Counted from the stretch's first letter, positions 4,226 through 60,865 are shown. The stretch: 64,000 bases of DNA from Desulfobulbus sp. (GCF_031280615.1 NZ_JAITGO010000001.1); one strand, 5' to 3'. Program-made: numbers and translations. The notes: generated by a model from the letters alone, not told the origin.

Positions 4226-5815
<1,590 letters not shown>

Positions 5816-8665: not shown

Positions 8666-8711
8666 ATCGTCCTTCCTATGCCGCCCAATCCAACTTCATC
8701 CCGGTGATTTT

Positions 8712-9974: not shown

Positions 9975-10056
9975 CCTCGAGCGACCACGCACCATCTCCC
10001 CGCGAAAACACCCCTGCGGTACGCGCCGCAAGGTTCATGGATGAGGAATATTGACT

Positions 10057-16250: not shown

Positions 16251-16326
16251 TGGCTCCCCGGGAGGGACTCGAACCCCCGACAAGGCGGTTAACAGCCGCC
16301 TGCTCTACCAACTGAGCTACCGAGGA
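16251..16326 (-). tRNA. tRNA-Asn (anticodon GUU)
   Basis: The reverse complement folds as a cloverleaf: TCCTCGG-TA-GCTCAGTTGGTAGAGC-A-GGCGG CTGTTAA CCGCC-TTGTC-GGGGGTTCGAGTCCCTC-CCGGGGA-GCCA. Confidence 0.9.
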
Positions 16327-20940: not shown

Positions 20941-21378
20941 TCAGGTGGCGAAGATGGCGGCGATTTCGTCGCGGGAGGTGCTGTCGAGCAGCCGTTGCCG
21001 GTTGCCCGGCTGCTTGAGGATCTTGCTGACCATGGCCAGGGTTTTCAGGTATTCTCCGGCCTTGCTGGCCGGAGAAAGCAGCATGACGAACAGGTGGGCG
21101 GGCCGGTTGTCGATGGCGTCGAAATCGATCCCGGTCTTGCTGCGCCCGAAGCAGAGCAGGATTTCGTCCAGTCCTTCGAGCTTGCCGTGGGGGATGGCCA
21201 CGCCATTGCCGAGCCCGGTCGAGCCCACGGCCTCGCGCTCCATCAGGGCGTGCAACAGCGTTGCTTCGGTAAAGCGGCCGCAGACCGTGGCGGCAACGCC
21301 CGCCAACTCGCGCAGGGCGGCTTCTTTGGTGGCTGCCTTCATATTGAGCAGCATGGCGTCGTGGAGCAGCCGGGGCAT
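20941..21378 (-). CDS. ptsN: PTS IIA-like nitrogen regulatory protein (EIIA-Ntr)
   Basis: 145 aa; GLGNGVAIPHGKL active-site His motif; immediately downstream of rpoN. Confidence 0.85.
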   Translation of the reverse strand: MPRLLHDAMLLNMKAATKEAALRELAGVAATVCGRFTEATLLHALMEREAVGSTGLGNGVAIPHGKLEGLDEILLCFGRSKTGIDFDAIDNRPAHLFVMLLSPASKAGEYLKTLAMVSKILKQPGNRQRLLDSTSRDEIAAIFAT

Positions 21379-21384
21379 GGCGGA

Positions 21385-22836
21385 TCAGTGGGTCTGTCTC
21401 CGGTGCTTGACCGGAAGAATTTTTAGTTGTTCCCGATACTTGGCAACGGTGCGCCGGGCAACGGAGATGTTTTCCTTGGCCAGCAGCTCGGAGATCTTGC
21501 TGTCGCTCAGCGGCTTGATCGGGTTCTCGCCGTTCACCAGTTGGCGGATCCTGGTCTTGATCGCCTCGGCCGCCACCGAATCGCCGTCCGGGGTGGCCAC
21601 CGCCGTGCTGAAAAAGTATTTCAGCTCATAGATGCCTTGGGGGCAGTGCACGTATTTGTTGGATGTCACCCGGCTGACGGTCGACTCGTGCATGCCGATA
21701 TCCTCAGCCACATCCCGCAGGATCAGCGGTTTCATCGCCGCCGATCCGTACTCGAAAAAATCCCGTTGAAACTTGAGCAGGCTTTCCATGACCCGGTAAA
21801 TGGTCCGCTGCCGCTGCTCGATCGACTTGATGAACCACTCGGCATTACGTTTGTTTTCGCGTAGATAGCCGCGCGACTCCGGCGAGAGGCCATTTTTCTG
21901 CTTGAGCAGTTGCTGATATTCGCTGGAAAGCTGTAGCTGCGGCATTCCCTCGTCGTTGAGTTGGATGACGAATTCGCCGTCGACCTTGTAGACGAACACA
22001 TCCGGCACCACGTAGTTGGTCTGCTCGTTGCTGAATTCGTTGCCGGGGTAGGGGGTCAGCTCCTGGATGACGGACACCGCCTCGTGCACTTTCTTGAGCG
22101 GGGCGCCGGTTTCCTTGGAGATTTGGGCATAGTTGCGCGATTCGAGCAGGCCCATGTGCTCCTCGACGATGCGCCAAGCCAGGGGATGGTCCTGGTCGAG
22201 GCGGTCGAGCTGCAACAGGAGCGATTCGCGGATGTCGCGGGCAGCGACCCCGGCCGGATCGAGGCTTTGCACCAGAAGCAGCGCCCCTTCGGCTTCTTCG
22301 TTGCTGCAGTTGCCGAAGGTGCAGATATCCTCGATGCTGGCTTCCAGGAATCCGTGTTCGTCGAGGTTGCAGACGATGAAGGTGGTCAGCTCGACATCCA
22401 ACTCGGTCATGTCGAGATGGGTCAGCTGCCACTGTAGGTAGGACGCCAGGCCGGGCGTGGCGGAGATGAAATCGAACTGGGATGGGGCGTCGGCCGGCGG
22501 GGCTTCATGGGAAAAGGAGAGGTCCGAGTCGAAGGCGTTGGAATAATCGTCCCAATTGACCTCGGTCACACTGGCCGGGTCGTCTCCCTTGATCCGGTCG
22601 GTGACCACCGCTTCCGCCTGATAGGTGTTTTCTTCCGCGCTGAGCGCCTCGGGATTGGCGGTCGGCTCAAGAACGCTCGGCACCTCTTCCAGCATGGGAT
22701 TCTGCTCGATCTCCGCCTGCAGGGCCTCGGTGAGTTCCAGGCGGCCCAGCTGCAACAGCTTGATGGCTTGACGCAGCTGCGGCGTCATCACCAGTTTTTG
22801 TGCCAGCTTGAGGCTTTGCCTGAGTTCGAGGGCCAT
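21385..22836 (-). CDS. rpoN: RNA polymerase sigma-54 factor
   Basis: MALELRQSLKLAQKLVMTPQLRQAIKLLQL at the N-terminus; C-terminal RpoN box ARRTVAKYR. Confidence 0.95.
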   Translation of the reverse strand: MALELRQSLKLAQKLVMTPQLRQAIKLLQLGRLELTEALQAEIEQNPMLEEVPSVLEPTANPEALSAEENTYQAEAVVTDRIKGDDPASVTEVNWDDYSNAFDSDLSFSHEAPPADAPSQFDFISATPGLASYLQWQLTHLDMTELDVELTTFIVCNLDEHGFLEASIEDICTFGNCSNEEAEGALLLVQSLDPAGVAARDIRESLLLQLDRLDQDHPLAWRIVEEHMGLLESRNYAQISKETGAPLKKVHEAVSVIQELTPYPGNEFSNEQTNYVVPDVFVYKVDGEFVIQLNDEGMPQLQLSSEYQQLLKQKNGLSPESRGYLRENKRNAEWFIKSIEQRQRTIYRVMESLLKFQRDFFEYGSAAMKPLILRDVAEDIGMHESTVSRVTSNKYVHCPQGIYELKYFFSTAVATPDGDSVAAEAIKTRIRQLVNGENPIKPLSDSKISELLAKENISVARRTVAKYREQLKILPVKHRRQTH

Positions 22837-22880
22837 GGGAAATCGGATTTTTTATTTGCGGTTTTACTGTCGGCGACGGG

Positions 22881-23612
22881 TCACATGGTGAAATGGTCGC
22901 CCAGGTACATTTTTCTCGCCACCGTGCTCTGAATGATGTCGTCGGCGCCGCCGCTGGTGAGAATCTGACCGTTATTCATAATATAGGCAAAGTCGCAGAC
23001 CTGCAAGGTTTCTCGGACATTGTGATCGGAGATCAGGATGCCCAGCCCCTTCTGTTTCAAGTCGCGGATAATATCCTGGAGATCGGCCACCGACAGGGGG
23101 TCGACGCCGGCAAAGGGCTCGTCGAGCAGGATGAAACGCGGCTTGGTGGCCAGGGCCCGCATGATTTCCACCCGTCGCCGCTCGCCGCCGGACAGGGCGT
23201 GCCCCTTGTTGCCGGCCAGATATTCCAGCTTCAGTTCCGCCATCAGCTCGCCGATCCGGTTGTTGATCTCGTTGCGCGACAGTCCCAGGGGCTCCAGTAC
23301 GATCCGGATGTTCTCCTCGACCGTCAGTTTCTTGAAGACCGACGGCTCTTGCGCCAGATAGGTGATGCCGCGCGAGGCCCGTTTGTGAATGGGCAGGGCG
23401 GTGATGTCTTCCTCGTCCAGGAGGATGGCGCCGCTGGTCGGGCGGATGAAACCGACGATCGAATAAAAAGTGGTGGTTTTGCCGGCGCCGTTCGGCCCGA
23501 GCAGGCCGACCACCGAGGAACTGTAGACCTGCACGTCGACCCGGTCGACCACCCGCCGGTCGCGGTACTCCTTGACCAGCCCCCGGGTTTCGAGGACAGA
23601 GGTTTCGGTCAT
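22881..23612 (-). CDS. lptB: LPS export ABC transporter ATP-binding protein
   Basis: GLLGPNGAGKTTTF, LSGGERRRVEI, ILLDEPFAGVDP; position between lptA and rpoN. Confidence 0.95.
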   Translation of the reverse strand: MTETSVLETRGLVKEYRDRRVVDRVDVQVYSSSVVGLLGPNGAGKTTTFYSIVGFIRPTSGAILLDEEDITALPIHKRASRGITYLAQEPSVFKKLTVEENIRIVLEPLGLSRNEINNRIGELMAELKLEYLAGNKGHALSGGERRRVEIMRALATKPRFILLDEPFAGVDPLSVADLQDIIRDLKQKGLGILISDHNVRETLQVCDFAYIMNNGQILTSGGADDIIQSTVARKMYLGDHFTM

Positions 23613-24160
23613 GGTTTTTTCTTGGATTCCGGGTGGATAATCGCCCGGACCCGGTTGTTGCCGCCGGTGTCCGGCTCGACGACCGACCGTTTCTCGTCAA
23701 GATAATAGACGATGCTCTTGCCGGACACCATGTTCTGGCCTTGCCAGGCCCTGGCATTGCCGCTGAGCACCGCCTTGCGTTCCTTGGCGAAATAATCCAT
23801 CCGCTCGCCGGCGCCCAGCCAGTCGCCCTGGCTGATCTTGACATTGCCGGTGCAAATCAGCTTCTCCACCTGGTTGGTGGGCTGGCCGCTTTGCTGCTGG
23901 CCCTGCGGCGTCTCGCCTTTTTTTTCGGTATAGAACACGGTCATCTCGTCGGACTTGATGGTGAGAGTGCCTTGGCGGGCGTCGACCTTGCCGATGAATA
24001 CCACCGAATTCTTGTTTTCTTGGGAAACCATGCGGTTGGCTTCGATGCTGATCGGCTGGTCCGACTCCTCGGCGGCGGCCTGGCCGTTGGCCGGGTCCGG
24101 CGGCAGGAGAAAAGCGGTCAGAAGCAGGGTGGTGCAAACGGCGGTATGAAAACGGCCCAT
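23609..24160 (-). CDS. lptA: LPS transport periplasmic protein LptA (OstA-like)
   Basis: Signal peptide plus OstA_N-like beta-jellyroll repeats (IEANRM...VFIGKVDARQGTLTIKSDEMTV...GNVKISQGD...LSGNARAWQGQN). 4-nt overlap with lptB. Confidence 0.75.
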   Translation of the reverse strand: MGRFHTAVCTTLLLTAFLLPPDPANGQAAAEESDQPISIEANRMVSQENKNSVVFIGKVDARQGTLTIKSDEMTVFYTEKKGETPQGQQQSGQPTNQVEKLICTGNVKISQGDWLGAGERMDYFAKERKAVLSGNARAWQGQNMVSGKSIVYYLDEKRSVVEPDTGGNNRVRAIIHPESKKKP

Positions 24161-24405: not shown

Positions 24406-25293
24406 ATGATACGCGAGGAAATCGCCAAGGCCAAGGTGCTGGTGGAGTCGCTTCCCTATATTCGTGAATTCAGGGAAAAAACCGTAGTGATCAAGTATGG
24501 CGGCCATGCCATGGTCGACGAGGCCTTGAAGCGCAACTTCGCCCTCGATGTCATCTTGATGAAATACATCGGCCTCAACCCGGTGATCGTGCACGGCGGC
24601 GGTCCGCAAATCAACCGCTTCCTGGAAAAGATGCAGGTCACCCCCAGCTATGTCCAGGGGATGCGGGTCACCGACGGCGAAACCATGGACGTGGTCGAGA
24701 TGGTGCTGGTCGGCAAGGTCAACAAGGAGATCGTCGGCCTGATCAATCATTGCGGCGGCAAGGCGGTCGGGCTTTCCGGCCGGGACGGCGATTTGGTGCA
24801 GGCCCGCAAGCTGACCATCCAGGGCAAGCCCGCAGCCGAGGACCAACCGCCGGAATTGATCGACATCGGCCGGGTCGGCGAGGTGACTCGGATCAATCCC
24901 GAAATCCTCACCGCTCTCGACCGGCAGGACTTCATCCCGGTCATTGCCCCGGTGGGGGTCGGCGAGGACGGCCGGGCCTTCAACATCAACGCCGACCTGG
25001 TAGCCGGGGCGATCGCCGCCGAGCTGAACGCGGTCAAGCTGATGCTGCTCACCGATGTCGAGGGCGTGAAAAACCAGAACGGCGAGCTGATTTCCACCAT
25101 TTATCGCGACCAGATCGACGACTTGATCGCGGCCGGGGTGATCAAGGGGGGGATGATTCCCAAGGTCAACTGCTGCAAGGCGGCTCTGGACGGCGGCGTA
25201 GCCAAGGCGCACATCATCGACGGCCGCCAGGAGCATGCTGTTTTATTGGAAATTTTTACCCGGAAAGGAATCGGGACGGAGTTGGTGGCATGA
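24406..25293 (+). CDS. argB: acetylglutamate kinase
   Basis: VIKYGGHAM...[11 protein letters not shown]...[14 protein letters not shown]. Confidence 0.95.
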
Positions 25294-26486
25294 CAAACGC
25301 AGAATGGGCGACGAGAGGTAACAAGGTGTTCATCGGAACCTACAGCCGGTTTCCGGCGGCCATGGTCAAGGGCAGCGGTTGCCGTCTCTGGGATGCGGAC
25401 GGCAAGGAATATCTCGATTTCCTGGCCGGGATCGCGGTCTGTTCGCTGGGGCACTGCCACCCGGCGGTCACCGAGGCCATTTGCCGTCAGGCCGGCGAAC
25501 TGGTCCACGTCTCGAATCTGTTCCACACCCCGCCGCAGATCCGGCTGGCCGAGTTGCTCGTCAACAACAGCTTTGCCGACCGGGTGTTCATGTGCAATTC
25601 CGGGGCCGAGGCCAACGAGGCGGCGATCAAGCTGGCCCGGATTCACAGCGGCGAAGGCCGCTACGAGATCATCTCGCTGGCCGGCTCGTTCCACGGCCGG
25701 ACGCTCGCCACCGTGGCTGCCACCGGCCAGCCCCGATTCCACCAGGGGTTCGAGCCCCTGCCCCAGGGATTCGTCCACGCCGAGTTCGGCGATCCGCGCA
25801 CCATCGAGGCCCTGGTCTCGTCCAAAACCTGTGCCATCCTGTGCGAACCCCTTCAGGGCGAAAGCGGGGTCCGGCCCCTGGAGCCCGAGTATATTCGGGC
25901 GATCCGCGACATCTGCGACCGGCACGGTCTGTTGCTGATTTTCGACGAAGTCCAGACCGGGCTTGGCCGGACCGGCACCCTGTTCGCCCATGAGCAGCTG
26001 GGCGTGACGCCGGACATCATGACCCTGGCCAAGGCCTTGGGCAACGGCCTGCCGCTTGGCGCCATGCTGACCACCGAGAGCATCGCCGCCTCGCTGACCG
26101 TGGGCACCCATGCCTCCACCTTCGGCGGCAATCCGGTGGCGACGGCCGCCGCAGTCGAGGTGCTCACCCTCATGCTGGCAGACGGCTTCATGGCGTCGAT
26201 CCGCGAGAAAAGCGCCTATTTCGTCGACAAACTCCAGGGGGTGGCCGTCCGCTATCCCCAGTGGGCCACCGGCGTGCGCGGACGGGGGCTGCTGCTTGGC
26301 CTGATGTTGACCGACAAGGGTATCGAGCGCGGCGCGGAGATCGTCCAGCGGATGTTCGAGGAAGGGGCCTTGATCAACTTTGCCGGCAACAGGGTCCTGC
26401 GTTTCGTGCCGCCCCTGATCGTCGGCACGGCCGAGATCGACACGCTGGTCGACAAGCTCTGTTTGGTGCTCGACCGACTGGCCTAG
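25290..26486 (+). CDS. argD: acetylornithine aminotransferase
   Basis: ATGA overlap with argB; [18 protein letters not shown]...[17 protein letters not shown]...[13 protein letters not shown]...[10 protein letters not shown]. Confidence 0.9.
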
Positions 26487-26504
26487 GCCACCGGTCTGCC
26501 CTCC

Positions 26505-27092
26505 ATGGATGCCGTTTCCTTGGTGGCCGTGGCCGTGGCCCTGGCCATGGATGCCTTTGCCGTTGCCCTGGCCGCCGGCGCCGTCCTCCATCCCCTGACC
26601 TTCCGGCCCTGTTTCCGCCTGGCCTTTCATTTCGGCCTGTTCCAGGCGATCATGCCGGTGATCGGCTGGTTGGCCGGGCTTACGGTGCACGCCTTTGTCG
26701 CCACCTGGAGCCATTGGATCGCCTTTGCCCTTTTGGCCTACATCGGCGGGCGGATGGTGTGCGAGGCCCTGAAGGGCGAGGAAGAGGGCGCGCAACCCGC
26801 CGACCCGAGCCGGGGACTGACCATGGTGGCCCTGTCGGTGGCCACCAGTATCGACGCCTTGGCGGTTGGCCTGACCCTGGCCATGCTCGACGTGGTCATC
26901 TGGATTCCCTCGTTGGTGATCGGTCTGGTCGCCTCGGCCTTTACGATCGTGGGGCTTTTTCTCGGTACCCAGGCCGGCCGCCGCTGGGGACGGTGGGTCG
27001 AGGTGGCGGGGGGCGCCATTTTGATCGGCATCGGCCTGAAGATACTCCTCACCGCCCTGTTCTTCGAACAAGCGACTGCAAGCATGGGCTGA
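26505..27092 (+). CDS. mntP: manganese efflux pump MntP-family membrane protein
   Basis: 195 aa, 6 TM; duplicated AMDAFAV / SIDALAVG motifs. Confidence 0.8.
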   Translation: MDAVSLVAVAVALAMDAFAVALAAGAVLHPLTFRPCFRLAFHFGLFQAIMPVIGWLAGLTVHAFVATWSHWIAFALLAYIGGRMVCEALKGEEEGAQPADPSRGLTMVALSVATSIDALAVGLTLAMLDVVIWIPSLVIGLVASAFTIVGLFLGTQAGRRWGRWVEVAGGAILIGIGLKILLTALFFEQATASMG

Positions 27093-27275
27093 CTCCTTTT
27101 CCACCGTCTTTCCCGCCCTGTCGAATGGGGGGCTTGTCCGCGAAATCCCTTTGCAACGATCCCGTTTTCTTGTATGAATTGTTTTTTCTCAGGAGCGGTG
27201 CGATGCCCCGAAAGGCCCGATGCACCGGCATGCGTTGGTGTGTCGCCGCTCCCGGATTATCTTGGGAAGAACGCT

Positions 27276-49786: not shown

Positions 49787-51010
49787 TCAGACAAAATTGT
49801 CTTCGAACTTATCCGCCCAGTTCAGGGCCCGGAAATAGGCGTCGATCATGGTCTCGGGCGAGATGCCGAGCTGTTGGAGATGGTTGGCGCATTCGTGGAA
49901 TTCGCCTCTTTCGTAGGTGGAGATCGCCAGGAGATAGGGCGCCAGCGGCCCGGTCCGCGTGTTGAGGGCGTTTTTCAACTCGTCAGTGAGCGGCAGCTTG
50001 GCGGTGAGTTCGGCCATGGGCATGTCGAGCATGGCATCGAGCAGGGAGAAAAGCCCGAGGAGGAAAAGCTGGGATTCGTCGATCTGTTCCTTGCGGAGTG
50101 CGCCTAAAAGCTGGCAGAGCCGCGCCCTGACCATCGACAGCCGCATCAGTTCCGAAGGCTTGCCGGCCGAGATTTCCGAGGTGGCGGCCAGGGAAACAAA
50201 CTGGCGGACCCCGCTTTCTCCCAAATAGGCCAAGGCGTAGCGGACTGAGGTGACCTTGCTGACCAGCGAATAATAGGCGGAATTGAGGTATCGGAAGAGC
50301 TTGTAGGAAAGCGAGACGTCCGGTGCGACCAACCGCTCGATCTTGCGCAGATCGACCTCCGGCAGGCAGACCTCGGCCAGCAGATTGAGCAGGACGATCT
50401 TCGAGGTGTCGATGGTCTTGTTCTTGAGCACCTCCGGCTTGTCGAGGAAATATCCCTGGAAATAATCGAAGCCGAGCGAGAGCGCGAGTTGGAATTCCTG
50501 GTAATTCTCGATTTTTTCTGCCAGCCAGGCAACGTCCGGATAGCATTTCATCCGGGCCATGTCCTCTGCCAGGCGTTCCCGGTCGACCGCCTGCAGGTCG
50601 ACCTTGACGATATTGACCAGGGGAACGAGCTGTTCGGACTGGGCGTTGAAGTCGAAATCGTCCAAGGCCAGGGTATATCCCTGTTCCTTCAACTCCGTGC
50701 AGGCCGCAAAGACCTTGGGCGAAGGGAGGATGGATTCGAGAATCTCGACGATGCAGCGTTTCTGGGGCAGCTGGAGCGGGGTTTTTTTTAGGAGGTGGTT
50801 TTCGGTAAAGTTGATCAGGGCCCGGTGGGGGCCGGTGATCGTGTCAAGACCGATATTGAACAGGACATGGGCCAGAACGGTATGGGTGGCCTCGTCGCTG
50901 TCGACCTCTTCGGGGAAGATGTTGACCATGCTCGATCGAAAGAGCACCTCGTAGGCGAACAGGCGCTTCTGGCGGTCGAAAACAGGCTGTCGTGCAATAT
51001 AAACATACAT
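49787..51010 (-). CDS. EAL plus HDOD domain protein (c-di-GMP phosphodiesterase-like)
   Basis: ARQPVFD...YEVLFR, EILE, ALDDFD, KVD, AEKIE, FQGYF; then HDOD-like SVRYALAYLGESGVRQF. Confidence 0.85.
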   Translation of the reverse strand: MYVYIARQPVFDRQKRLFAYEVLFRSSMVNIFPEEVDSDEATHTVLAHVLFNIGLDTITGPHRALINFTENHLLKKTPLQLPQKRCIVEILESILPSPKVFAACTELKEQGYTLALDDFDFNAQSEQLVPLVNIVKVDLQAVDRERLAEDMARMKCYPDVAWLAEKIENYQEFQLALSLGFDYFQGYFLDKPEVLKNKTIDTSKIVLLNLLAEVCLPEVDLRKIERLVAPDVSLSYKLFRYLNSAYYSLVSKVTSVRYALAYLGESGVRQFVSLAATSEISAGKPSELMRLSMVRARLCQLLGALRKEQIDESQLFLLGLFSLLDAMLDMPMAELTAKLPLTDELKNALNTRTGPLAPYLLAISTYERGEFHECANHLQQLGISPETMIDAYFRALNWADKFEDNFV

Positions 51011-51246: not shown

Positions 51247-51990
51247 TTATTTGAAAAAGGCTAGCAGCGCGTGCAAGGTAGTCAGGGGATGGGGAGGACA
51301 ACCGGGGATATAGAGATCCACGGGGATGAGCGTGTTCAGGTCGCCGATGATCTCGTCCGATCCGTAAAAAGGGCCGCCCGAAATGGCGCAGCAGCCGCTG
51401 GCGATGACCACCTTGGGGGCAGGCACGGCGGCATAGGTATCGAGCAGAGCGGTGCGCATGTTACGGGTGATCGGCCCGGTGACATGGATGCCGTCGGCAT
51501 GCCGGGGCGAGGCGACGAAATCGATGCCGAAGCGGGAAAGATCGAAAAACGGGGTGTTCAGCACATTGGTGTCGGCCTCGCAGGCGTTGCAGCCGCCGGC
51601 CGAGACCTGGCGGAGCTGGAGCGAGCGGCCAAACAGCTTCTTGAAATGGGCCTTGGCCTGGCTGGCCAGATCGGGTAGGGCGCCCTTGACGACCAGATCC
51701 TGACGGCGGGCGGCGCCCATTTCGAAGTTGTTGCTGAAACGGACAAAGGCCCCGTCGGCCACCTGGCCGCAGGCGCCGCAGAAGGTGCAGCGGCCCAAAT
51801 CGATGGTTTGCTCGTCGGCCGAGATCGCCTCCTGCGGGCAGAGGTCCGCGCATTGGCGGACAATGGCCGGGTCGCAGGCGGCATTGATCTCGGGCAGACC
51901 GCGAAACCGGGACGAAAGCCGCGCCGGTCGCTTGGGATACGGGCTGGTGCGGTAGCCCTGGTCCATCCTGGTGGCGATTACCTTTAACAT
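51247..51990 (-). CDS. NuoB/HycG-like small subunit with a fused N-terminal degenerate ferredoxin-like segment
   Basis: CADLCPQEAI and CTFCGACGQ in the N-terminal ~100 aa. Then the NuoB cluster motifs GGCNACE, ASGCCAISGG and IPGCPP. Confidence 0.85.
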   Translation of the reverse strand: MLKVIATRMDQGYRTSPYPKRPARLSSRFRGLPEINAACDPAIVRQCADLCPQEAISADEQTIDLGRCTFCGACGQVADGAFVRFSNNFEMGAARRQDLVVKGALPDLASQAKAHFKKLFGRSLQLRQVSAGGCNACEADTNVLNTPFFDLSRFGIDFVASPRHADGIHVTGPITRNMRTALLDTYAAVPAPKVVIASGCCAISGGPFYGSDEIIGDLNTLIPVDLYIPGCPPHPLTTLHALLAFFK

Positions 51991-52050
51991 GCCGCACCTC
52001 TGTCGATGTGGCCGGCCTCGGCCGGTTGCCGTTTGTCCATCTTGGTCCCC

Positions 52051-53562
52051 TTACAGGTCGAAGCCGCAGTAGCTGAGATTGAAACTCTTGTTGCAGAGCG
52101 GAAAATCGGAGATGGCTTGATTGCGCAGGGCCATGGCCAGTCCCGTCCAGTTGTGGAAGGAGGGATCCTTGACCTTGTACCGCAGGGGCGCTCCGTTGTG
52201 GTCGGTGAGCAGGCAGTGGGAAACCTCGCCCCGCCACCCCTCGTTGAGGGTGACCACGAAACTCGCCGGCGCAAGCTTGTGCTCGGCCGGGAGCACCGGC
52301 CGGTAGGCCTCCTCCGGCATGGCCAGCAGTCGTTCGACCAGGTCGAGCGAATGCATGATCTCATCGCGCCGGACCATGGCCCGGCTGTAGACGTCGCCGT
52401 TGGTCGCCCAGTTGGTGTTGGCCGGCAATTCCCCATACCGCTCGGTGGGGAAGAATTCGCGCACGTCGTATTCCAGCCCGGAGGCCCGGCCGCAGGGGCC
52501 CACCAGGCCCAACCGGTCGGCCGTGCTTCGCTTGACCGTGCCGGTGTATTCGAAACGGGCCAGAACGGTGTGGGCCGAGAAGAGCAAATCGCAGACCTGG
52601 GCGAGTTCTTTCCGCAGTTCGTCGATCTTCGAGCGGATGGCCCGGCGCTGCTCCGCCCCGGCCACCTGGGTGACGCCGCCCGGGCGCACCAGGCTCTTGC
52701 CGAAACGATTGCCGCTCAATTCCAGCAGCAGGTTGAGGAACTCGCCGCGGATGCGGCCGAAATAGGCTGCGGGCGGATTGAAGGCCACATCGCCGCTCAG
52801 GGCGCCGAGATCGCCGATGTGGTTGGCCAATCGCTCCAATTCCAGGGCCATGGTGCGCACCGTGCGGGCGCCCGGCTCCACCTCCAGCCCGGCCAATGCC
52901 TCGATCGCCTGGCAACAGCAGAGGTTGTGGCCGATGGCGGTGTCGCCGGCAATGGATTCGCAGAGCACGGGCCAGCGCCGTTGCGGCACCGAGGTCAGCA
53001 GCCGTTCCACTCCCCGGTGCTGGTAGCCCAGCTGGATCTCCAGGTGGAGCACTTCCTCGCCGGCGCATTGAAAACGGAAGTGGCCGGGTTCGATGATGCC
53101 GGCATGCACCGGCCCGACCCCCACCTCGTGGACGGCCTCGCCTTCGACTCGGTAATAGTCGTAGTTGCCGGGGATATCGACCCGGTAGTCGTTGCCGAAG
53201 ACATCGGGCAGGCCGGTCGCGTTGGCGTGGTAGCGCACCATTTTCAGCCAGGGATGCCCGTTGGGACGCAGGCCGTATTGCTCGGCGATTTCCCGCTCGA
53301 ACAGGTGAAACTTGGTGCCGCCCATCAGGGTCAGCGAGGGGAAGTCGCGCTCCACCTCCGTTTCCACCACATGGAGATCGCTGTTGCGGAGCACGGCCAA
53401 AAGCCGCATCCGCTCTCCTTCGGCATAGGCGAAGAACTGGACGATGTAGCCGTTGCAGTGGACAAAGTCGGTCAACATCCGCAGGAAGCGGGGAAAATCG
53501 ATCCGGGGAATCCGGCTGCGGGGCACCGCTTCGCCGTTCCCGATCCGGAGAGGGCTATCCAT
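52051..53562 (-). CDS. NuoC-NuoD fused, HycE/HyfG-like large subunit lacking the [NiFe] cysteine ligands
   Basis: GVGPVHAGIIEPGHFRF...LGYQHRGVE resembles HycE. Where HycE has RVCGICGFAH this protein has SIAGDTAIGH. Where HycE has SLDPCYSCTDR it has SFNLSYCGFDL. Confidence 0.85.
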   Translation of the reverse strand: MDSPLRIGNGEAVPRSRIPRIDFPRFLRMLTDFVHCNGYIVQFFAYAEGERMRLLAVLRNSDLHVVETEVERDFPSLTLMGGTKFHLFEREIAEQYGLRPNGHPWLKMVRYHANATGLPDVFGNDYRVDIPGNYDYYRVEGEAVHEVGVGPVHAGIIEPGHFRFQCAGEEVLHLEIQLGYQHRGVERLLTSVPQRRWPVLCESIAGDTAIGHNLCCCQAIEALAGLEVEPGARTVRTMALELERLANHIGDLGALSGDVAFNPPAAYFGRIRGEFLNLLLELSGNRFGKSLVRPGGVTQVAGAEQRRAIRSKIDELRKELAQVCDLLFSAHTVLARFEYTGTVKRSTADRLGLVGPCGRASGLEYDVREFFPTERYGELPANTNWATNGDVYSRAMVRRDEIMHSLDLVERLLAMPEEAYRPVLPAEHKLAPASFVVTLNEGWRGEVSHCLLTDHNGAPLRYKVKDPSFHNWTGLAMALRNQAISDFPLCNKSFNLSYCGFDL

Positions 53563-54988
53563 GGACGGTGCCTCCGATCATGGCAATGGTGTTGACGATG
53601 GTCCGGTACAGCGGCTCGGGCATCCAGACGCAGAGCAGCACCGAGGCGAGCAGCAGGGCCAGCGGCGGTATGGTCCGCGCCGGCTGCTCTTGCACCAACA
53701 CCTCGTTCCGGACCGGGCCGAAGGCCATGGCGGTGGCAATCCGGGCGAAGCCGGCCACCACCAGCAGCAGCGCGGCAACGAACAGGCCGGCGGCCACCGG
53801 GTGCCCGGTTTGGAGGGCCCCAATCAGGATCATCAGTTCGCTGACAAAGATGCCGAACGGCGGCAAACCGGAGATACCGATGAAGCCGGCGAAGAAACCG
53901 ATAAAGGTCCGGGGCAGCAGGCGGGCCATGCCGCCGCATTGGGCGGCCAGCTTGGTGCCGAAACCGAGCACCAGGTTGCCGGCCGAAAGAAAGAGCGAGG
54001 ACTTGAGCAGCGAGTGGTGGATCAGATGGAGCATGGCGCCGTACAGGCCCAGGCCGCCGACCCCGATGCCGACGGCGATCACCCCCATGTTCTCGATGCT
54101 CGAGTAGGCGAGCATCCGCTTGTAATCGGGCTGGTTGAGGATGAAGACCCCGGCCACCACGATGGACAACAGGCCGAAGCCGATGAGCAGGTTTCCGGAG
54201 AAATCGCCGAGTCCGGCCAGGACCAGCAGGCAGTGCACCTTGTAGATACCGAGGAAGGCGCAGTTGAGCAGCGCCCCCGAGAGCAGGGCCGAGGCCGGGC
54301 TGGGGGCCTCGCTGTGGGCATCCGGCAGCCAGGTGTGCATCGGCGCCAGGCCCATCTTGGTGCCGAAGCCGATGAGCACGAAGATGAAGCCGGTCCGCAG
54401 CCAGAGCGGATCCAGCTGGTGGGCGGCATCGTTTAGGGCCGAGAAGGTCAGCGGCACGTCGATGCCGGGCCGGTCCATGGACAGGGTGACGAAAAAGAAA
54501 CCGAGCAGGGCCAGGGCGATCCCCACCGAGCAGATCAGCACGTACTTCCACGTGGCTTCCAGGGCTTTTTTCGAGCGGTTGATGAAAATCAGCGGGGCAC
54601 TGGTCAAGGTGGTGGCCTCGATGGCGATCCACAGGACAACGGGATGGTCGGCCAGGGCGGCCATGCTCATGGTGCCGAGGAACAGCTGCATGCAGCCGAG
54701 GAAGATCGGCTCGCTGTGCATCTCCTGCTCCCGCATGTAGAAAATGCCGTAGGGCGCGATCCAGCAGAAGATGAACGAGGTCACCAGCAACACCAGGATC
54801 CCGGCCGGGCTGTTGCCGAAATAGTGGGGCAGGTACGGGGCCGGGACCAGCAGCCAGCAGAAGACGGTCAGCAGCAAATGGATCAGGGCTACCGCCACCA
54901 GCATGGCGCGGCCCAGCCTGACCGGCAGGAACAGGGTCAGCAATCCGGTGCACAACGGCAGGGAGAAAATGGCTTCCAGCATGGTCAA
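53555..54988 (-). CDS. NuoM/N / HyfF-like antiporter-type membrane subunit
   Basis: 477 aa, polytopic. WLPDAHSEAPSPASALLSG and MLAYSSIENMG are Mrp/NuoLMN-family motifs. 8-nt overlap with the large subunit gene. Confidence 0.85.
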   Translation of the reverse strand: MTMLEAIFSLPLCTGLLTLFLPVRLGRAMLVAVALIHLLLTVFCWLLVPAPYLPHYFGNSPAGILVLLVTSFIFCWIAPYGIFYMREQEMHSEPIFLGCMQLFLGTMSMAALADHPVVLWIAIEATTLTSAPLIFINRSKKALEATWKYVLICSVGIALALLGFFFVTLSMDRPGIDVPLTFSALNDAAHQLDPLWLRTGFIFVLIGFGTKMGLAPMHTWLPDAHSEAPSPASALLSGALLNCAFLGIYKVHCLLVLAGLGDFSGNLLIGFGLLSIVVAGVFILNQPDYKRMLAYSSIENMGVIAVGIGVGGLGLYGAMLHLIHHSLLKSSLFLSAGNLVLGFGTKLAAQCGGMARLLPRTFIGFFAGFIGISGLPPFGIFVSELMILIGALQTGHPVAAGLFVAALLLVVAGFARIATAMAFGPVRNEVLVQEQPARTIPPLALLLASVLLCVWMPEPLYRTIVNTIAMIGGTVHG

Positions 54989-55638
54989 TCCTTGAGTTCC
55001 TCGAGATAGGCGGTGTCGACGTCGTCAAAGGTGCGGTTGATGTTGTGCAGGATGATCCCCATGATCATCACCCCGACCAACAGATCGAGCAGGACGCCGA
55101 ACTCGACGAGATAGATGCTGTGCGACTGGCTGGTAAGCGCCGTTCCCACCAGGTAGATTCCGTTCTCCAGCATCAGGTAGCCGATGACCTGGGTGATGGC
55201 CTTGGTGCGGCTCATCATCAGAAACAGGCCGCCGCCCAGGGTGGTGATGGCCGTGACCAGAAGCAGGGTGGCTTTGCCGGTCGAAGGAATGGCCAGGTGG
55301 CGGGTGATGTAGGCCGACAGCAGGATCAGGCCGAGCCCGGCAACCAGCGAGGCGTGGTAGCCGACCAGCGGTTCGACTTCCCGCTTGATCGCCACCCTGG
55401 TCACCGCCGTGAACAGCAGGACCGGGATGAGGACCGCCTTGACCAGGAACATCAGCTGAAAAAAGAAAATGCCTTCGTGGCTGAGCGAACTGTGCTTGTC
55501 GAGCAGCAGGGGGGCAACGGACACCATCGCGCCCTGCAGGGCCATGATTTTGACCAGGGCCATCATCCGGCTGGACGCCAGCGACAACAAAACCGACAGC
55601 AGGGTGATGACCAGGACGACATCGATGCTGGTGACCAT
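54985..55638 (-). CDS. HyfE-like small membrane subunit
   Basis: 217 aa, ~7 TM, with GYLMLENGIYL as in HyfE/NuoK-like subunits. 4-nt overlap downstream and 1-nt overlap upstream. Confidence 0.7.
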   Translation of the reverse strand: MVTSIDVVLVITLLSVLLSLASSRMMALVKIMALQGAMVSVAPLLLDKHSSLSHEGIFFFQLMFLVKAVLIPVLLFTAVTRVAIKREVEPLVGYHASLVAGLGLILLSAYITRHLAIPSTGKATLLLVTAITTLGGGLFLMMSRTKAITQVIGYLMLENGIYLVGTALTSQSHSIYLVEFGVLLDLLVGVMIMGIILHNINRTFDDVDTAYLEELKD

Positions 55639-56552
55639 CAGGCAATCTCCAGGGTGAGGATAATGGCGAAAAAGACCAGAGCGAACGAGGTGAGAATGTA
55701 TTTGGGCACCATGTCCATCCTCAGGCGGGCGGTGACCGACTCGATGACGCCGATGGCCAGGTAGACCACGGCCATCATGCCGTAGAAAAACAGGATATTG
55801 GCCAACGGGCCGGCAAGGCCGGCGGGTTTGAGCAGATCGGCGATCAGGGCGGCGTACAGGAAGAGCTTGTAGAAGGCGCCCAGTTCGATCAGGGCCAGGT
55901 CCGGGCCGCTGTGATCGAGGATCATCACCTCGTGGATCATGGTCAGCTCCAGATGGGTGGCCGGATCGTCCACCGGTACCCGGGAGTTTTCGGCGAGCAG
56001 AAGCATGAACAGGGCGACCACCGCCAGAATCAGCAGGGCCCCTTGAGAGCCGGTGATCGAGATCGGCTGGCTGCCGGTAAAGTAGCCGCCCAGGCTGAGC
56101 GAGCCGTTGAGGCGGAAGAAGAGGATCAGCACTGCGAAGACCGCCGCTTCGGCCAGGGTGCCGAAGAAGGCCTCCCGGGCCGCACCCATGCCCTCGAAGG
56201 GCGAGCCGGTATCCAAGGCCGCGGCGATGGTGAAGAAGCGGCCGAGCCCCAGCAGGTAGAACAGGACGATGACGTCGCCGTGGAAAGAAACCACCGGCGC
56301 CATGCCGGCGAAGGGAAAGAACAGCAAAACCGCGATCGCGGCTGCGCAGCCGACCAGGGGCGCCAGGCGGAAGACGAAGGTGGTGCTGGTGCTGTAGACC
56401 GAGCCCTTGCGCAGCAGCTTGATCAGGGTCCAGTATTTGATCAAAAGCGGCGGTCCCTTCTTGCCGGCGAACAGCGCCTTTACCTTCAGGATGAGGCCGG
56501 GAAAGAGCGGGGCCAGCAGCAGGGCCAGGCCGAGGGAGAGAACGGATTCCAT
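55638..56552 (-). CDS. NuoH / HycD / HyfC-like membrane subunit
   Basis: Start MESVLSLGLALLLAPLF...KALFAGKKGPPLLIKYW...; TMIHEVMILDHSG. ATG at 56552, 17 nt after the upstream stop. Confidence 0.8.
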   Translation of the reverse strand: MESVLSLGLALLLAPLFPGLILKVKALFAGKKGPPLLIKYWTLIKLLRKGSVYSTSTTFVFRLAPLVGCAAAIAVLLFFPFAGMAPVVSFHGDVIVLFYLLGLGRFFTIAAALDTGSPFEGMGAAREAFFGTLAEAAVFAVLILFFRLNGSLSLGGYFTGSQPISITGSQGALLILAVVALFMLLLAENSRVPVDDPATHLELTMIHEVMILDHSGPDLALIELGAFYKLFLYAALIADLLKPAGLAGPLANILFFYGMMAVVYLAIGVIESVTARLRMDMVPKYILTSFALVFFAIILTLEIA

Positions 56553-56569
56553 AACGTACCTTCTCGGGG

Positions 56570-58525
56570 CTAGACCGTCAGCAGCAGGACGGCGATGGTC
56601 AGGACGATGTAGCCGATATACAGCTGGATGTGGCCGTGCTGAATCCAGCGCAGTTTGTCCGCGATCAGCAGGATGGGCGCGACCAGCAGGCGGCGGAGCC
56701 CGATTTCGGCCCAATCGTCCACCTTGCTGGCATAACGGACCGGCCGGGGAAAGATTTGGCTGATCGGGCCGCACGTGGTGTGGATTTTGACGAAGGGGCG
56801 ATGGAACTCCACCATTTCCCGGGCATAAGATGTGCCGGTGTACTGAATTCGGGCCGTCGGTCGGGTAAAGCCGCAGCCCCAGGTGGTGGCCTGGGCTATC
56901 GGCTTGGCGCGGTAGATGAAATGGCGGCAGAGGGCGAGCAACAGCAGCACCGCCAGGAAAATCCTGGTGGCCAGGGCCAGGTTGCCCGGCAGGGAGCCGA
57001 GCAGGGCCGGTTGGCTGGCCGCCGGCAGGGCCAGGTCGCTTAGGCCGTTGAGGGCCAGACGGATGAACGGCTCGGGCCAGAGGCCGATCGACAGGCAGGC
57101 CAGCACCAGGACGATCATGGCCGCGCGCATGGACAGTCCCGCCTCGGTGACCGTGGCGGGCAGAGGTCGGCGCGGCTCGCCGAGGAAGACAAGGCCCGCC
57201 ACCCTGGTGAAACAGGCCGAGGCCAGCCCGCCGATGAGCGCCAGGGCAATGATGGCGGCCATGGCGAGCAGCCCATCCGGCCCGTTAAGGCGCACGCCCT
57301 GGAAGGCGGCGAAATAGATGAGGAATTCGCTGACAAAGCCGTTTAGGGGCGGCAGGCCGGCAATGGCCACCGAACCGGTGAGAAAGGTTCGGGCGGTGAC
57401 GGGCATCCGCCGCATCAGCCCGCCCAGCTGGTCGAGGTGGCGGCAGCCGGTTTGCTGGATCACCGCCCCGGCCCCCATGAACAGCAGCGATTTGAACAGG
57501 GCGTGGTTGAACATGTGCAGCAGGCCGCCGGCAAAACCGAAGGCGGTCATCGTCTGGTTGCCCGAGGCGATGCCCACCATGCCCAGGCCGCAGCCGATGA
57601 GCACGATGCCGATGTTCTCGATGCTCGAGTAGGCCAGCAGCCGTTTGATGTCGTTCTTGCCGAGGGCATAGACCACTCCGAGCACACCGGAGACCATGCC
57701 CAGCCCGAGCACGGTCCGGCCCAGGATCGGCGCCGGGTCGTCGATGAGGAAATAAAAGCGGAGCAGCCCGTACACCCCCATCTTGATCATCACTCCCGAC
57801 ATCAGGGCCGAGACATGACTGGGCGCGGCCGGATGGGCATGGGGCAGCCAGATGTGCAGCGGCAGGATGCCGGCCTTGGAGCCGAAACCGGCCAGGGCCA
57901 GGAAAAAGGCGGCGAGCTTGATGGCGTGCGGGGCCTGCGACCATTGAGCAAAGGCAAAGGTGCCGGTGGCCTGGAAGAGCAGGCCGAAGGCAATGAAGAG
58001 CAGCAGGGCGCCGGTCTGGGTGAAGAGCAGGTAAAGGGTGGCCGCCTTCCGACTCTCTTCGTGCTCGTGGTCGTACAGCACCAAGAGGTAGGAAGAGAGC
58101 GACATCAGTTCCCAAGCCATGGCAAAGGCCGGCAGGTTGTCGGCCAGGGTGACCAGGACCATGGCCGCGGTCAGCAGGCTGAAGCAGAACAGGTGCGCGC
58201 CGGCCTGCCAGACGGGGGCCTTACGGTCGAGATAGTGGTAGCCGTAGAGTGCAATCACCGGGGCCAGAAGGAAGACCGGCACGAGAAAAACCGCGCTCAA
58301 GGAGTCGAGGGCAAGCGACAGGGGCAGGGTGTGCAGCCAGGTGCATGAAAAAACGGGGGCAATGCCCTGGCCCCAGGTCCGAATGAGCGCGGCCAGCCCG
58401 GCCAGGCAGCCGGCGGTCAGGAGGACGAGGTGCACGATTCTGGCGCAGGCGGGCCGGCGCAGCAGCGGCAAGGGCGCCAGGCCGCCGGCCAGAATGAGGC
58501 CCAGGGCTGTCAATAAAAGTTCCAT
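56570..58525 (-). CDS. NuoL / HycC / HyfB-like antiporter-type membrane subunit
   Basis: 651 aa; WELMSLSSYLLV, WLPHAHPAAPSHVSALMSG, LLAYSSIENIG. Confidence 0.85.
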   Translation of the reverse strand: MELLLTALGLILAGGLAPLPLLRRPACARIVHLVLLTAGCLAGLAALIRTWGQGIAPVFSCTWLHTLPLSLALDSLSAVFLVPVFLLAPVIALYGYHYLDRKAPVWQAGAHLFCFSLLTAAMVLVTLADNLPAFAMAWELMSLSSYLLVLYDHEHEESRKAATLYLLFTQTGALLLFIAFGLLFQATGTFAFAQWSQAPHAIKLAAFFLALAGFGSKAGILPLHIWLPHAHPAAPSHVSALMSGVMIKMGVYGLLRFYFLIDDPAPILGRTVLGLGMVSGVLGVVYALGKNDIKRLLAYSSIENIGIVLIGCGLGMVGIASGNQTMTAFGFAGGLLHMFNHALFKSLLFMGAGAVIQQTGCRHLDQLGGLMRRMPVTARTFLTGSVAIAGLPPLNGFVSEFLIYFAAFQGVRLNGPDGLLAMAAIIALALIGGLASACFTRVAGLVFLGEPRRPLPATVTEAGLSMRAAMIVLVLACLSIGLWPEPFIRLALNGLSDLALPAASQPALLGSLPGNLALATRIFLAVLLLLALCRHFIYRAKPIAQATTWGCGFTRPTARIQYTGTSYAREMVEFHRPFVKIHTTCGPISQIFPRPVRYASKVDDWAEIGLRRLLVAPILLIADKLRWIQHGHIQLYIGYIVLTIAVLLLTV

Positions 58526-58851: not shown

Positions 58852-59082
58852 TCATCGTTCAAAGAAAAAGCCGTACCAGGGGCTGTCCGGGTTGTCGGCG
58901 GCCCCCATGTCGACGATCTGGCAGTCGTCGGTCTTCTTCTGCATGCTTCGTTGCCAGGCCAGGGCTTCGTCTTTGGAGGAGAACGGGCCGACAGCGGTCA
59001 GCGGGGCGGCGCGCAACCCCAGGTTCTCGTATAATTTATCCACCTTGTCCTGTTGCTGATGGATACCGATCATCATGGTCAT
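58852..59082 (-). CDS. hypothetical 76-aa protein downstream of a sigma-54 promoter
   Basis: GC3-rich codon usage like neighbouring genes; MTMMIGIHQQQDKVDKLYENLGL...SPWYGFFFER. I recognise no family. Confidence 0.45.
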   Translation of the reverse strand: MTMMIGIHQQQDKVDKLYENLGLRAAPLTAVGPFSSKDEALAWQRSMQKKTDDCQIVDMGAADNPDSPWYGFFFER

Positions 59083-59146: not shown

Positions 59147-59162
59147 TGCACGATTCGTGCCC
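59147..59162 (-). promoter_or_regulatory. candidate sigma-54 (-24/-12) promoter
   Basis: The minus strand reads GGGCACG-AATC-GTGCA, against the consensus TGGCACG-N4-TTGCW, with correct GG/GC spacing. It lies ~65 nt upstream of the ATG at 59082 and just downstream of a sigma-54 activator gene. Confidence 0.5.
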
Positions 59163-59458: not shown

Positions 59459-60865
59459 CTAGGCGCGGAAGAGGCTGGGAAACACCACCGAGGGCGAGGA
59501 TTCCGGTTCGTGCTGGTGATGCAGCTTCCGGTAAAGGGTTTTGCGGTCGATCTGGAGAATCTGGGCCGCCAGGGTCCGATTGCCGCCGACCATGGCGAGG
59601 ACATGGTGCATGTATCGGTGCATCATCTCTGCCATCGGCACCAGCTCGCCCGGACTCGGCAGCCCCGGCGCGGAAGAGGCCGGTTCGTGCCGGAAGGAAA
59701 GAATGCGTTCGGGGAGGTCGTCGGGGATGATTTTCCGGTGATTGGTCAGGGTGACCGCATGTTCCATGGCGTTGCGCAATTCCCGGACATTGCCCGGCCA
59801 GCGGTAGGCTAGCAGCTTGTGGGCGGTGCCGTTGGCCATGCCGGTAATGTTTTTGCCCTGGCGGGAGGCGTAAAGCTCGATGTATTTCTCGGCAAGCAGC
59901 AGGATATCCGTGCCCCTGGTGCGCAGCGGCGGCACCTGGACGGTAATCACGTTCAGCCGGTACAGCAGGTCTTCGCGGAAGGTTCCCTCGGCCACCGCGG
60001 CTTCGAGGTCCCGGTTGGTGATGGCGATCACCCGCACGTCCAGGGGCTTTTCGGTGGTGCTGCCCAGCGGCCGGACACAGCGGTCCTCGAGCACGCGCAG
60101 CAGTTTGGGCTGCAGCGACAGCGGCAACTCACCGATTTCGTCCAGAAGCAGCGTGCCGCCGTTTGCGGCCAGAAACAAGCCCTTGTAATCGGAGTGGGCG
60201 CTGGTGAAGGCCCCCTTGACATGGCCGAACAGCTCGCTTTCCAGCAGGGATTCGGGCATGGCCGAGCAGTTGATGGCCACCAGGGGCTGTTGGGCGCGCC
60301 GGCTGTACTTGTGGATGGCCCGGGCAGCGAGCTCCTTGCCCGAGCCGCTTTCGCCGGCGAGCAAAACCGATGCCTCGGAATCGGCGATCCGGAGCAGCTT
60401 GGAGAACAGGGCCTGCATGACCTGGCTCTCGCCGATCAGTTCATCGAACGAACGGGTCCGTTCCAGGGCCTGGCTGAGTTGCTTGACGCTTTCCTGCAGC
60501 CGGCGGTGATTGATCGCCCGGGCCAGGACCAATTCGAGCAGGTTGATGTCAAAGGGTTTGGTAATGAAATCGTAGGCCCCGGCCCGGATGGCGGCGATGG
60601 CCGCCTCCATGCTGCCGAAGGCGGTCATGATCACCACCGGGATCTCCGGCCAGCGGGCGGAAAGTTCCCGGCACAGTTCAAAGCCGTTGAGGTCGGGTAG
60701 GTTGATCGCGGTCAGGATGACGTCGATCGAGTCGCTGGTCACGGCGGCTAGGCCCTGGTGGCCGCTGGTGTGGAGGGCGACGGTGCATCCCAGCAGCGAC
60801 AGGCGCATGCACAGCATCTGCGCCAGCTCCCGGTCGTCTTCGATGATGAGGATTTTTCCGTCCAT
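59459..60865 (-). CDS. sigma-54-dependent transcriptional activator (NtrC family) with an atypical receiver domain
   Basis: Receiver plus AAA+ domain ([20 protein letters not shown] variant of [20 protein letters not shown]) plus a Fis-type HTH. The acceptor position reads [10 protein letters not shown] where NtrC has DVLLSDIRMP. Confidence 0.9.

Follow-up and report, generated by a model that had tools for sequence, protein, structure and literature searches.

The large subunit of the locus and the question it raises

Does a six-gene membrane module that resembles hydrogenase 4 and lacks the ligands of the metal site still encode a hydrogenase? The question is raised by positions 51247-58525 of a 64,000-nucleotide (nt) stretch of DNA from Desulfobulbus sp. 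(GCF_031280615.1, NZ_JAITGO010000001.1; hereafter the window), where six co-oriented open reading frames (ORFs) on the minus strand encode HyfB/NuoL-, NuoH/HycD-, HyfE- and HyfF/NuoM-like proteins, a NuoC-NuoD-fused large subunit and a fused small subunit. A first reading of the sequence (the original prediction) had described a Hyf/complex-I-like module in this order, and had proposed that it encodes an energy-converting-hydrogenase-related (Ehr) complex and not a hydrogenase. The ORF coordinates and searches of Pfam and NCBIfam bear out the module and its order, the gene content and order match ehrA-B-C-D-L-S, and the ligand loss is family-wide. The identification of the locus as the ehrABCDLS operon of a Desulfobulbaceae-like bacterium, encoding an Ehr complex and not a hydrogenase, is supported by the shared loss of these ligands, by a gene order which recurs in other bacteria including Geobacteraceae, and by the conservation of channel residues and NuoB-type cluster ligands.

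The large subunit EhrL (52051-53562, minus strand, 503 amino acids (aa)) is a NuoC-NuoD fusion, matching Pfam Complex1_49kDa (3e-38) and, weakly, Complex1_30kDa. It was aligned by phmmer against all PDB chains, with matches to MbhL (6cfw_L, E=3e-41, 145 bits), HycE (7z0s_E, E=1e-36, 130 bits), Nqo4 (1e-29, 107 bits) and MbsL (6u8y_L, E=9e-24, 87 bits). In the alignments to solved structures the hydrogenase CGIC is paired with AGDT of EhrL, and DPCYSC of HycE with NLSYCG, which places A205, T208, S497 and G500 at the four ligand positions, none of them a cysteine. The L1 (RxCGxCxxxH) and L2 (DPCxxCxxR/H) cysteine motifs of group 4 [NiFe] hydrogenases are both absent. The strings SIAGDTAIGH and NLSYCGFDL, from which it had been deduced by eye that all four cysteines were missing, are present in the translation; the alignments to MbhL and HycE confirm the deduction, and neither phmmer nor the family alignment described below reveals CxxC pairs in a shifted position. 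Having no Ni-Fe ligands, EhrL cannot be a [NiFe] hydrogenase.

The family alignment comprised 114 full-length representatives, drawn from the best 150 of 5,912 clusters in a library of 1.8 billion proteins. The Ni-Fe ligands are absent in 108/114, with the common motifs [AS]-G-D-[ST] and S-F-N-L-S-Y-[CSA]-G-x-D-L, while cysteines occur at the ligand positions in only six sequences (all four in five, three of four in one), which are 34-37% identical to the query. Since the same replacement motifs are found in 108 of the 114 relatives, the loss of the ligands is not a matter of decay. Alternative or shifted cysteine ligands were also considered and rejected: when each cysteine of EhrL was followed through the 108 sequences of Ehr type, its conservation never exceeded 65%. 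This includes C499, which lies one residue out of register with the ligand position and is a cysteine in only 42/108. The resulting Ehr signature in EhrL reads G206-D207-[ST]208, D466 and S497-Y498-x-G500-x-D502, with the replacement residues D207 (100/108), S497 (96/108) and G500 (101/108) well kept. Relative to the true hydrogenases closest to them, the Ehr-type proteins have acquired D207 and D466 (the latter in 87/108), both of them acidic, and the hydrogenase-type proton-relay glutamate, E158 of the EPGHFR loop, is retained in 99/108. An AlphaFold model of EhrL (predicted local distance difference test 89, predicted template modelling score 0.91) has low confidence only in two loops lining the former active site, and in fold it comes closest to HycE (7z0s_E, template modelling (TM) score 0.88), followed by the NuoCD fusions of E. 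coli and Aquifex (0.82-0.84); as modelled, EhrL keeps the hydrogenase/NuoD fold.

Distribution and gene order of related operons

A genome scan with one genome per species gave at least 596 confirmed relatives, a pool which may include some true hydrogenases, and synteny and flank counts rest on the best 80 of these (L001-L080). The proteins most similar to EhrL of the window belong to metagenome bins of Desulfobulbus and Desulfobulbaceae and reach 88% identity, and the public names of close relatives are 'hydrogenase', 'Ni,Fe-hydrogenase III large subunit' and 'NADH-quinone oxidoreductase subunit C'. The 80 loci span more than ten phyla, and include Desulfobulbales (with Candidatus Electrothrix), Desulfobacterales, Geobacterales, Desulfuromonadales, Planctomycetota and Verrucomicrobiota, as well as Omnitrophota, Spirochaetota, Gemmatimonadota, Acidobacteriota, Bacteroidota, Zixibacteria and Riflebacteria. 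All 80 have the C-terminal S-Y-[CAS]-G motif and lack the cysteine pairs, and the order ehrA-B-C-D-L-S is found in every complete locus among them. The ehrA gene is duplicated in Geobacterales and several other lineages and single in the window. In two loci (L053:13242-20560 and L079:224-9980) a second, paralogous Ehr-type cluster lies beside the first, with a large subunit that is 34-40% identical, carries SGD[ST] and SYSG and is also without Ni-Fe cysteines.

The names ehrA-B-C-D-L-S were given in Geobacter sulfurreducens, for a homologue of Ech and the group 4 hydrogenases without NiFe ligands (PMC7894505, PMC13194489, PMC6349859, PMC10284858), where GSU0739-0745 correspond to ehrA-1/A-2/B/C/D/L/S (PMC7894505, PMC13194489). 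Four Geobacteraceae loci (L031, L033, L052 and L053) have the A-B-C-D-L-S order at 45-49% EhrL identity, and the conserved order with duplicated ehrA in Geobacterales matches this naming; by way of these other Geobacteraceae genomes and the gene names in PMC7894505, we infer that the operon in the window is orthologous to GSU0739-0745. Ehr has been placed next to group 4f yet outside the hydrogenases, with its function called unknown (PMC10284858), and Ehr subunits have been detected as protein in G. sulfurreducens, at levels which change with the electron donor (PMC7894505, PMC8691401). Our literature search found neither a report of Ehr in Desulfobulbaceae nor a biochemical characterisation of any Ehr complex. 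The rarity of the module had been overrated by the original prediction, as Ehr occurs in hundreds of species and was described about 20 years ago by Coppi 2005 and Marreiros et al. 2013, as cited in PMC7894505 and PMC6349859. The operon in the window is a new member of this described family and does not define a new class, and what it adds is modest: lineage details, namely the loss of distal-cluster ligands and a unit of sigma-54 regulator and small protein.

Iron-sulfur clusters of the small subunit

EhrS (51247-51990, minus strand, 247 aa) combines an N-terminal part (residues 1-105) matching HycF/HyfH/NuoI with a C-terminal part (approximately 110-247) matching NuoB/HycG (Oxidored_q6), and among the PDB chains it is matched by MbhJ at 2e-30. 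The NuoB-type motifs GGCNAC, GCCA and GCPP had been noted as intact, and they are: C134, C137, C201 and C231 are conserved in 63-66/67 relatives. The N-terminal part had been described as a fused, degenerate ferredoxin segment. The fusion stands, while the segment itself aligns to HycF and NuoI, and is thus a NuoI/HycF homologue fused to NuoB in which one complete set of four cysteines (C51, C68, C71 and C74) is kept. The distal NuoI-type set has lost the second cysteine of motif 1 (V44) and the last cysteine of motif 2 (A78). We take C51/C68/C71/C74 to hold the cluster next to N2 (N6b-type) and the damaged set to be the distal, donor-facing one (N6a-type), by analogy with the ligand swapping that is standard in 2x[4Fe-4S] ferredoxins and with the cluster assignments in Nqo9, which reportedly come from Sazanov and Hinchliffe 2006. 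EhrS is therefore predicted from its cysteines to retain the NuoB-type [4Fe-4S] site and one complete NuoI-type [4Fe-4S] site.

In most phyla the N-terminal domain of EhrS has both CxxCxxCxxxCP-type motifs, with eight cysteines in total. Losses of the V44/A78 type are common to the clade at 58% EhrL identity or more (L001-L017), which comprises Desulfobulbales, Desulfobacterales and one Pseudodesulfovibrio metagenome-assembled genome (MAG). The Desulfobacterales have lost the first cysteine as well, the Gemmatimonadota have lost cysteines of motif 2, and in two Omnitrophota loci the NuoI-like domain is absent altogether. The number of [4Fe-4S] clusters is thus predicted to differ by clade, at two versus three.

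Operon layout and the membrane arm

The membrane arm is encoded by four genes on the minus strand. EhrA (56570-58525, 651 aa) is a HyfB/NuoL-type antiporter-like subunit (Pfam Proton_antipo_M, 1e-58; NCBIfam hydrogenase-4 subunit B, 576 bits), and EhrB (55638-56552, approximately 304 aa) is NuoH/HycD-like (Pfam NADHdh, 1e-29), its start being placed at the ATG at 56552, as the mechanical ORF extends up to 56774 and homology begins only at that methionine. EhrC (54985-55638, 217 aa) is HyfE-like (NCBIfam hydrogenase-4 membrane subunit, 7.5e-21; Pfam Oxidored_q2, 5e-4) with a NuoK-like C-terminal half, and EhrD (53555-54988, 477 aa) is a HyfF/NuoM-type antiporter-like subunit (Pfam Proton_antipo_M, 5e-49; NCBIfam hydrogenase-4 subunit F, 3e-100) which starts at a TTG at 54988 or, alternatively, at an ATG at 54982. 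It had been claimed that most junctions overlap by 1-8 nt, which does not hold, since only two or three of the five do. The overlap is 1 nt at B/C, 8 nt at D/L and, provided that ehrD starts at the TTG, 4 nt at C/D, and there are gaps of 17 nt at A/B and 60 nt at L/S. For EhrA and EhrD the best NCBIfam matches are the hydrogenase-4 subunits B and F, but all scores are below the curated equivalog cut-offs for Hyf or Nuo (HyfB 576 vs 667 bits, HyfE 75 vs 136, HyfF 337 vs 610 and NuoD 185 vs 360), and the ehr genes are therefore relatives of those families and not members. The ORFs have a strong coding signature (GC content at third codon positions (GC3) 0.78-0.90). A 529-aa ORF antisense to ehrL (52006-53595, plus strand) has no family matches and is a high-GC shadow ORF.

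Channel residues were assessed by aligning EhrD to MbhH (which matches it at 2e-29) and E. coli NuoM, together with family-wide residue counts. EhrD keeps E124 (the glutamate of transmembrane helix 5), K211 (the lysine of helix 7), K329 and E384 (the glutamate of helix 12), and has N242 in place of the helix 8 lysine. In EhrA, E139, K217, K248, H337, H341, K345 and E400 are conserved in 52-53/53 relatives, in EhrB the acidic loop between helices 5 and 6 (E189, R192, D196, D197, E203 and E209) is conserved in at least 93% of 67, and E158 and E179 of EhrC are conserved too. By these alignments and counts, the canonical channel residues of the membrane arm are essentially invariant, and the NuoH coupling loop and the Glu/Lys residues of the predicted proton channels in the two antiporter-like subunits are retained. 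The fold of EhrL, the iron-sulfur (Fe-S) sites, the coupling loop and the channel residues are all under family-wide purifying selection.

The upstream region and its regulators

Upstream of ehrA lies a gene for an NtrC-family, sigma-54-dependent response regulator (59459-60865, minus strand) with REC, AAA+ and HTH_8 domains (Pfam Sigma54_activat, 9e-67; Response_reg, 5e-26), which is conserved at this position in L001-L003 (56-62% identity). Between regulator and ehrA a small ORF (58852-59082, minus strand, 76 aa) has only a weak Pfam match, to DUF4170. The small protein (76-89 aa, motif IGITQ...VGPF.S...A..W) was found by tblastn (E 1e-9 to 2e-4) in one or two tandem copies in the same three loci (L001:4231-4479 and 4561-4830, L002:3411-3641, L003:4082-4324 and 4438-4686). 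A sigma-54-type -24/-12 element, GGGCACGAATCGTGCA (59147-59162, minus strand), is situated approximately 65 nt upstream of the start codon of the small ORF, and equivalent elements are present approximately 50-70 nt upstream of it in L001 (TGGCACATATGTTGCT), L002 (TGGCACAGCTCATGCA) and L003 (TGGCGCAGATATTGCT). The unit of regulator, -24/-12 element and small protein is thus conserved in four Desulfobulbales-type loci. The original prediction had placed the module beside sigma-54 control elements; the recurrence of regulator and element position agrees with this, although the element match by itself is no better than chance over the window as a whole. The idea that sigma-54 promoters precede ehrA throughout the family was rejected, as the frequency of hits, 0.129 per kb, is the same as the background, 0.129, and a positionally conserved element is confined to the Desulfobulbales-type loci. 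Expression of ehr in the Desulfobulbales clade is most likely sigma-54-dependent via the adjacent NtrC-type regulator, and this has a parallel in E. coli, where hyf and hyc are sigma-54-dependent via HyfR and FhlA. An Rfam search of the 330-nt leader and the spacer between regulator and operon gave no match.

A different gene takes this place in many of the other loci: in 27/80, from many phyla, a gene for a protein of approximately 275 aa with HTH_17 and PTS_EIIA_2 domains (EIIA(Ntr)/PtsN-like) is found directly upstream of ehrA on the same strand (L015, L016, L019, L021, L023, L028-L032, L035, L037, L039-L041, L044, L045, L047, L051-L054, L056, L060, L062, L067 and L077; for example L060:2211-3038, plus strand). 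This HTH-EIIA(Ntr) protein is a candidate conserved regulator which may link Ehr to the nitrogen phosphotransferase system (PTS). EIIA(Ntr) proteins regulate K+ transport, as PtsN does in E. coli.

Three loci of Desulfobulbales and cable bacteria contain, between the small ORF and ehrA, a gene for a protein of approximately 390 aa that weakly matches LCIB_C_CA (beta-carbonic-anhydrase-like; Pfam E=3.8e-5), their hosts being a Desulfobulbaceae MAG (L002:3706-4878), Ca. Electrothrix gigas (L006:3518-4699) and Ca. Tharpella (L004:15-899). The gene was set aside, being absent from the window and having no NCBIfam match. On the other side of the operon, a gene on the same strand (49787-51010), which follows ehrS after 236 nt, encodes a protein with a partial EAL match and an HDOD domain; it was set aside too, as it is conserved beside Ehr in no related locus.

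Comparison with characterised complexes

The Ehr complex of G. sulfurreducens shares with that of the window the set and order of subunits, a large subunit free of NiFe ligands and a NuoB-type cluster in the small one. The differences lie in ehrA, single in the window and double in Geobacterales; in EhrS, in which most Geobacteraceae keep all eight cysteines and the window has lost the distal NuoI-type ligands; and in the upstream genes, which in the window encode an NtrC-type sigma-54 activator and a small protein, and not an HTH-EIIA(Ntr) protein.

Hydrogenases 3 and 4 of E. coli (formate hydrogenlyase; HycE/HyfG, 7Z0S, group 4a) have the same NuoC-NuoD-fused large subunit fold and HyfB/C/E/F-like membrane subunits, and HycE and EhrL both have the EPGHFR loop and, at the C terminus, ...Y..D[LR]. 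In contrast, the Ehr complex of the window has no counterpart of the four Ni-Fe cysteines, HycB/HyfA, HyfD, formate dehydrogenase, hyp or HycI, and HycF and HycG are separate proteins in E. coli whereas their homologues are fused in EhrS. Of all solved structures, the membrane-bound hydrogenase (MBH) of Pyrococcus furiosus (6CFW) is, through MbhL, the closest in sequence to the Ehr catalytic core; unlike Ehr, which has six subunits and no NiFe site, it retains that site and comprises 14 subunits, including an Mrp module. Seven core subunits of complex I/NDH-1 have homologues in Ehr, which also shares with it the N2-type cluster, the loop of NuoH and antiporter-like channel residues, and NuoD resembles EhrL in having no NiFe ligands. 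Ehr differs from complex I in the hydrogenase-like beta1-beta2 loop of EhrL and in lacking NuoA, separate NuoJ and NuoN and the NuoEFG module, with six genes versus 11-14 nuo genes. The MBS/Mbx complexes differ as well, as MbsL is not the closest relative of EhrL and the six-gene operon is without the Mrp-type extra subunits.

Function and alternative explanations

The best overall explanation of these data is that the Ehr complex (ehrABCDLS) is a redox-coupled ion pump, with sigma-54-dependent expression in the Desulfobulbales clade, which we consider on balance probable, if only by a little. In such a machine, electrons from a cytoplasmic donor of low potential, either ferredoxin or a partner Fe-S protein, would be fed into the NuoI-type cluster of EhrS, from where they would reach the N2-type cluster and then a putative acceptor. 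This acceptor would sit in the remodelled pocket where EhrL, EhrS and EhrB meet (E158, D207, T208, D466, S497 and Y498). Changes in the pocket linked to redox state or protonation might drive the movement of H+ or Na+ through EhrB, EhrC, EhrD and EhrA, and the complex could conceivably run in reverse, with the ion gradient being used to make low-potential reductant. If we had to name the acceptor, it would be a membrane quinone or some other small oxidant, and not protons.

Several observations weigh against this explanation. The quinone head-group residues of complex I, H38 and Y87 of Nqo4, align to I157 and G206 of EhrL, so that a complex-I-type quinone site is absent, and Riflemargulisbacteria reported to have Ehr have no quinone biosynthesis (PMC6349859). 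Among the clustered flanking ORFs of the 80 loci there is no conserved partner oxidoreductase (no formate dehydrogenase, NuoEF or similar), with only regulators recurring. The Fe-S content of the NuoI-like domain varies by lineage, which is odd for an obligatory electron wire.

The last two points would suit an Mrp-like cation transporter or antiporter, in which the Fe-S clusters are structural or redox-sensing, there is no second substrate, and ion homeostasis is under nitrogen-PTS/sigma-54 control; the HTH-EIIA(Ntr) gene directly upstream in 27/80 loci, and the sigma-54 regulator which the Desulfobulbales loci carry instead, are in line with such control. However, the N2-type ligands, the proton-relay glutamate beside the pocket and the NuoH coupling loop are almost invariant, for which a redox-coupled machine is a better fit than a plain antiporter, and Mrp systems have no need of NuoB/D/I homologues, making the transporter unlikely. 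The absence of the NiFe site has a precedent in MBS, the one characterised complex derived from hydrogenases that is known to have a degraded NiFe site. A complex of the MBS/Mbx type, reducing sulfur or polysulfide, would be in keeping with how Desulfobulbales metabolise sulfur, the clade's hosts being sulfur-cycle bacteria, and MbsL is a detectable relative of EhrL. Against this, MbsL scores lower (87 bits) than MbhL, HycE and Nqo4, the Mrp-type extra subunits of MBS are missing from the operon, and Ehr is found just as often in Planctomycetota, Verrucomicrobiota, Gemmatimonadota and Acidobacteriota; we regard a function of this kind as quite improbable.

The loss of the catalytic metal site might also be taken as a sign that the locus is what remains of a hydrogenase operon, decaying and without function, as was suggested for Geobacter KN400 in PMC13194489, where ehrA-2 and ehrB had missense changes after long culture on an electrode and this was read as relaxed selection. 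The six intact ORFs, the gene order kept in every complete locus among the 80 and across more than ten phyla, the conservation of the replacement residues (D207, S497 and G500), the invariant channel lysines and glutamates, the strong coding signature and the detection of Geobacter Ehr by proteomics (PMC7894505, PMC8691401) all argue against such a relic, which is very hard to credit. There is next to no chance that the operon encodes a genuine group 4 [NiFe] hydrogenase (Hyf/Ech type) with its ligands mis-aligned by eye, despite the public hydrogenase names of its relatives, the top scores of its membrane subunits, which go to the models for subunits B, E and F of hydrogenase 4, and the best fold match, which is HycE. 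This is refuted at the level of the sequence: profile alignments to MbhL and HycE give A, T, S and G at the four cysteine positions, no cysteine of EhrL exceeds 65% conservation, true four-cysteine relatives appear only at approximately 35% identity, scores stay under the NCBIfam equivalog cut-offs, and the window contains no hyp or protease genes.

The former Ni-Fe pocket may have become a new, strongly conserved carboxylate/hydroxyl site (G206-D207-[ST]208, D466 and S497-Y498) beside the proton-relay glutamate and the N2-type cluster, binding an unrecognised substrate or cofactor, which would make Ehr a distinct class of ion-translocating oxidoreductase. This is a tentative and rather doubtful proposal. 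If it is true, the shortening of the wire to two clusters in Desulfobulbales and Desulfobacterales, together with sigma-54 control, would suggest that the point of electron entry or the partner is new as well.

Other genes in the window

The original prediction had also stated that the window contains no genes for formate dehydrogenase, hyp or a maturation protease, and Pfam scans of the other called genes agree, as no hyp, formate dehydrogenase or hydrogenase protease genes were found there. The remaining genes have housekeeping functions (rpoN-ptsN-lptB-lptA, arginine and lysine biosynthesis, gap and pgk). Approximately 30 kb from the Ehr operon, rpoN, encoding sigma-54 (21385-22836), is located with ptsN/EIIA(Ntr) (20941-21378), lptB and lptA on the minus strand (20941-24160). 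A co-oriented run of genes on the plus strand (6842-16024) encodes an AMP-binding enzyme, an HMG-CoA reductase, a UbiA-family prenyltransferase, a PPDK_N/PEP-utiliser-domain protein, a DUF3419 protein and a 442-aa protein of no assigned family, and may be an isoprenoid or lipid biosynthetic cluster. The only match in the window above the Rfam gathering threshold is a tRNA gene (16254-16326, minus strand). A 667-aa ORF (25101-27104, minus strand) has no family matches and an atypical GC content by codon position, and is probably miscalled, which leaves approximately 25300-27100 unannotated.

Implications for annotation and evolution

Ehr complexes are widespread and routinely annotated as 'hydrogenase', with the result that H2 metabolism is overpredicted in Desulfobulbales, Geobacterales, Planctomycetota and other groups. 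In evolution they sit between hydrogenases and complex I. With the comparative data presented here, Ehr genes can be annotated correctly by their family signature, the number of clusters can be predicted for each clade, and the conserved regulators, of the sigma-54 NtrC type or HTH-EIIA(Ntr), hint at the conditions under which Ehr is used.

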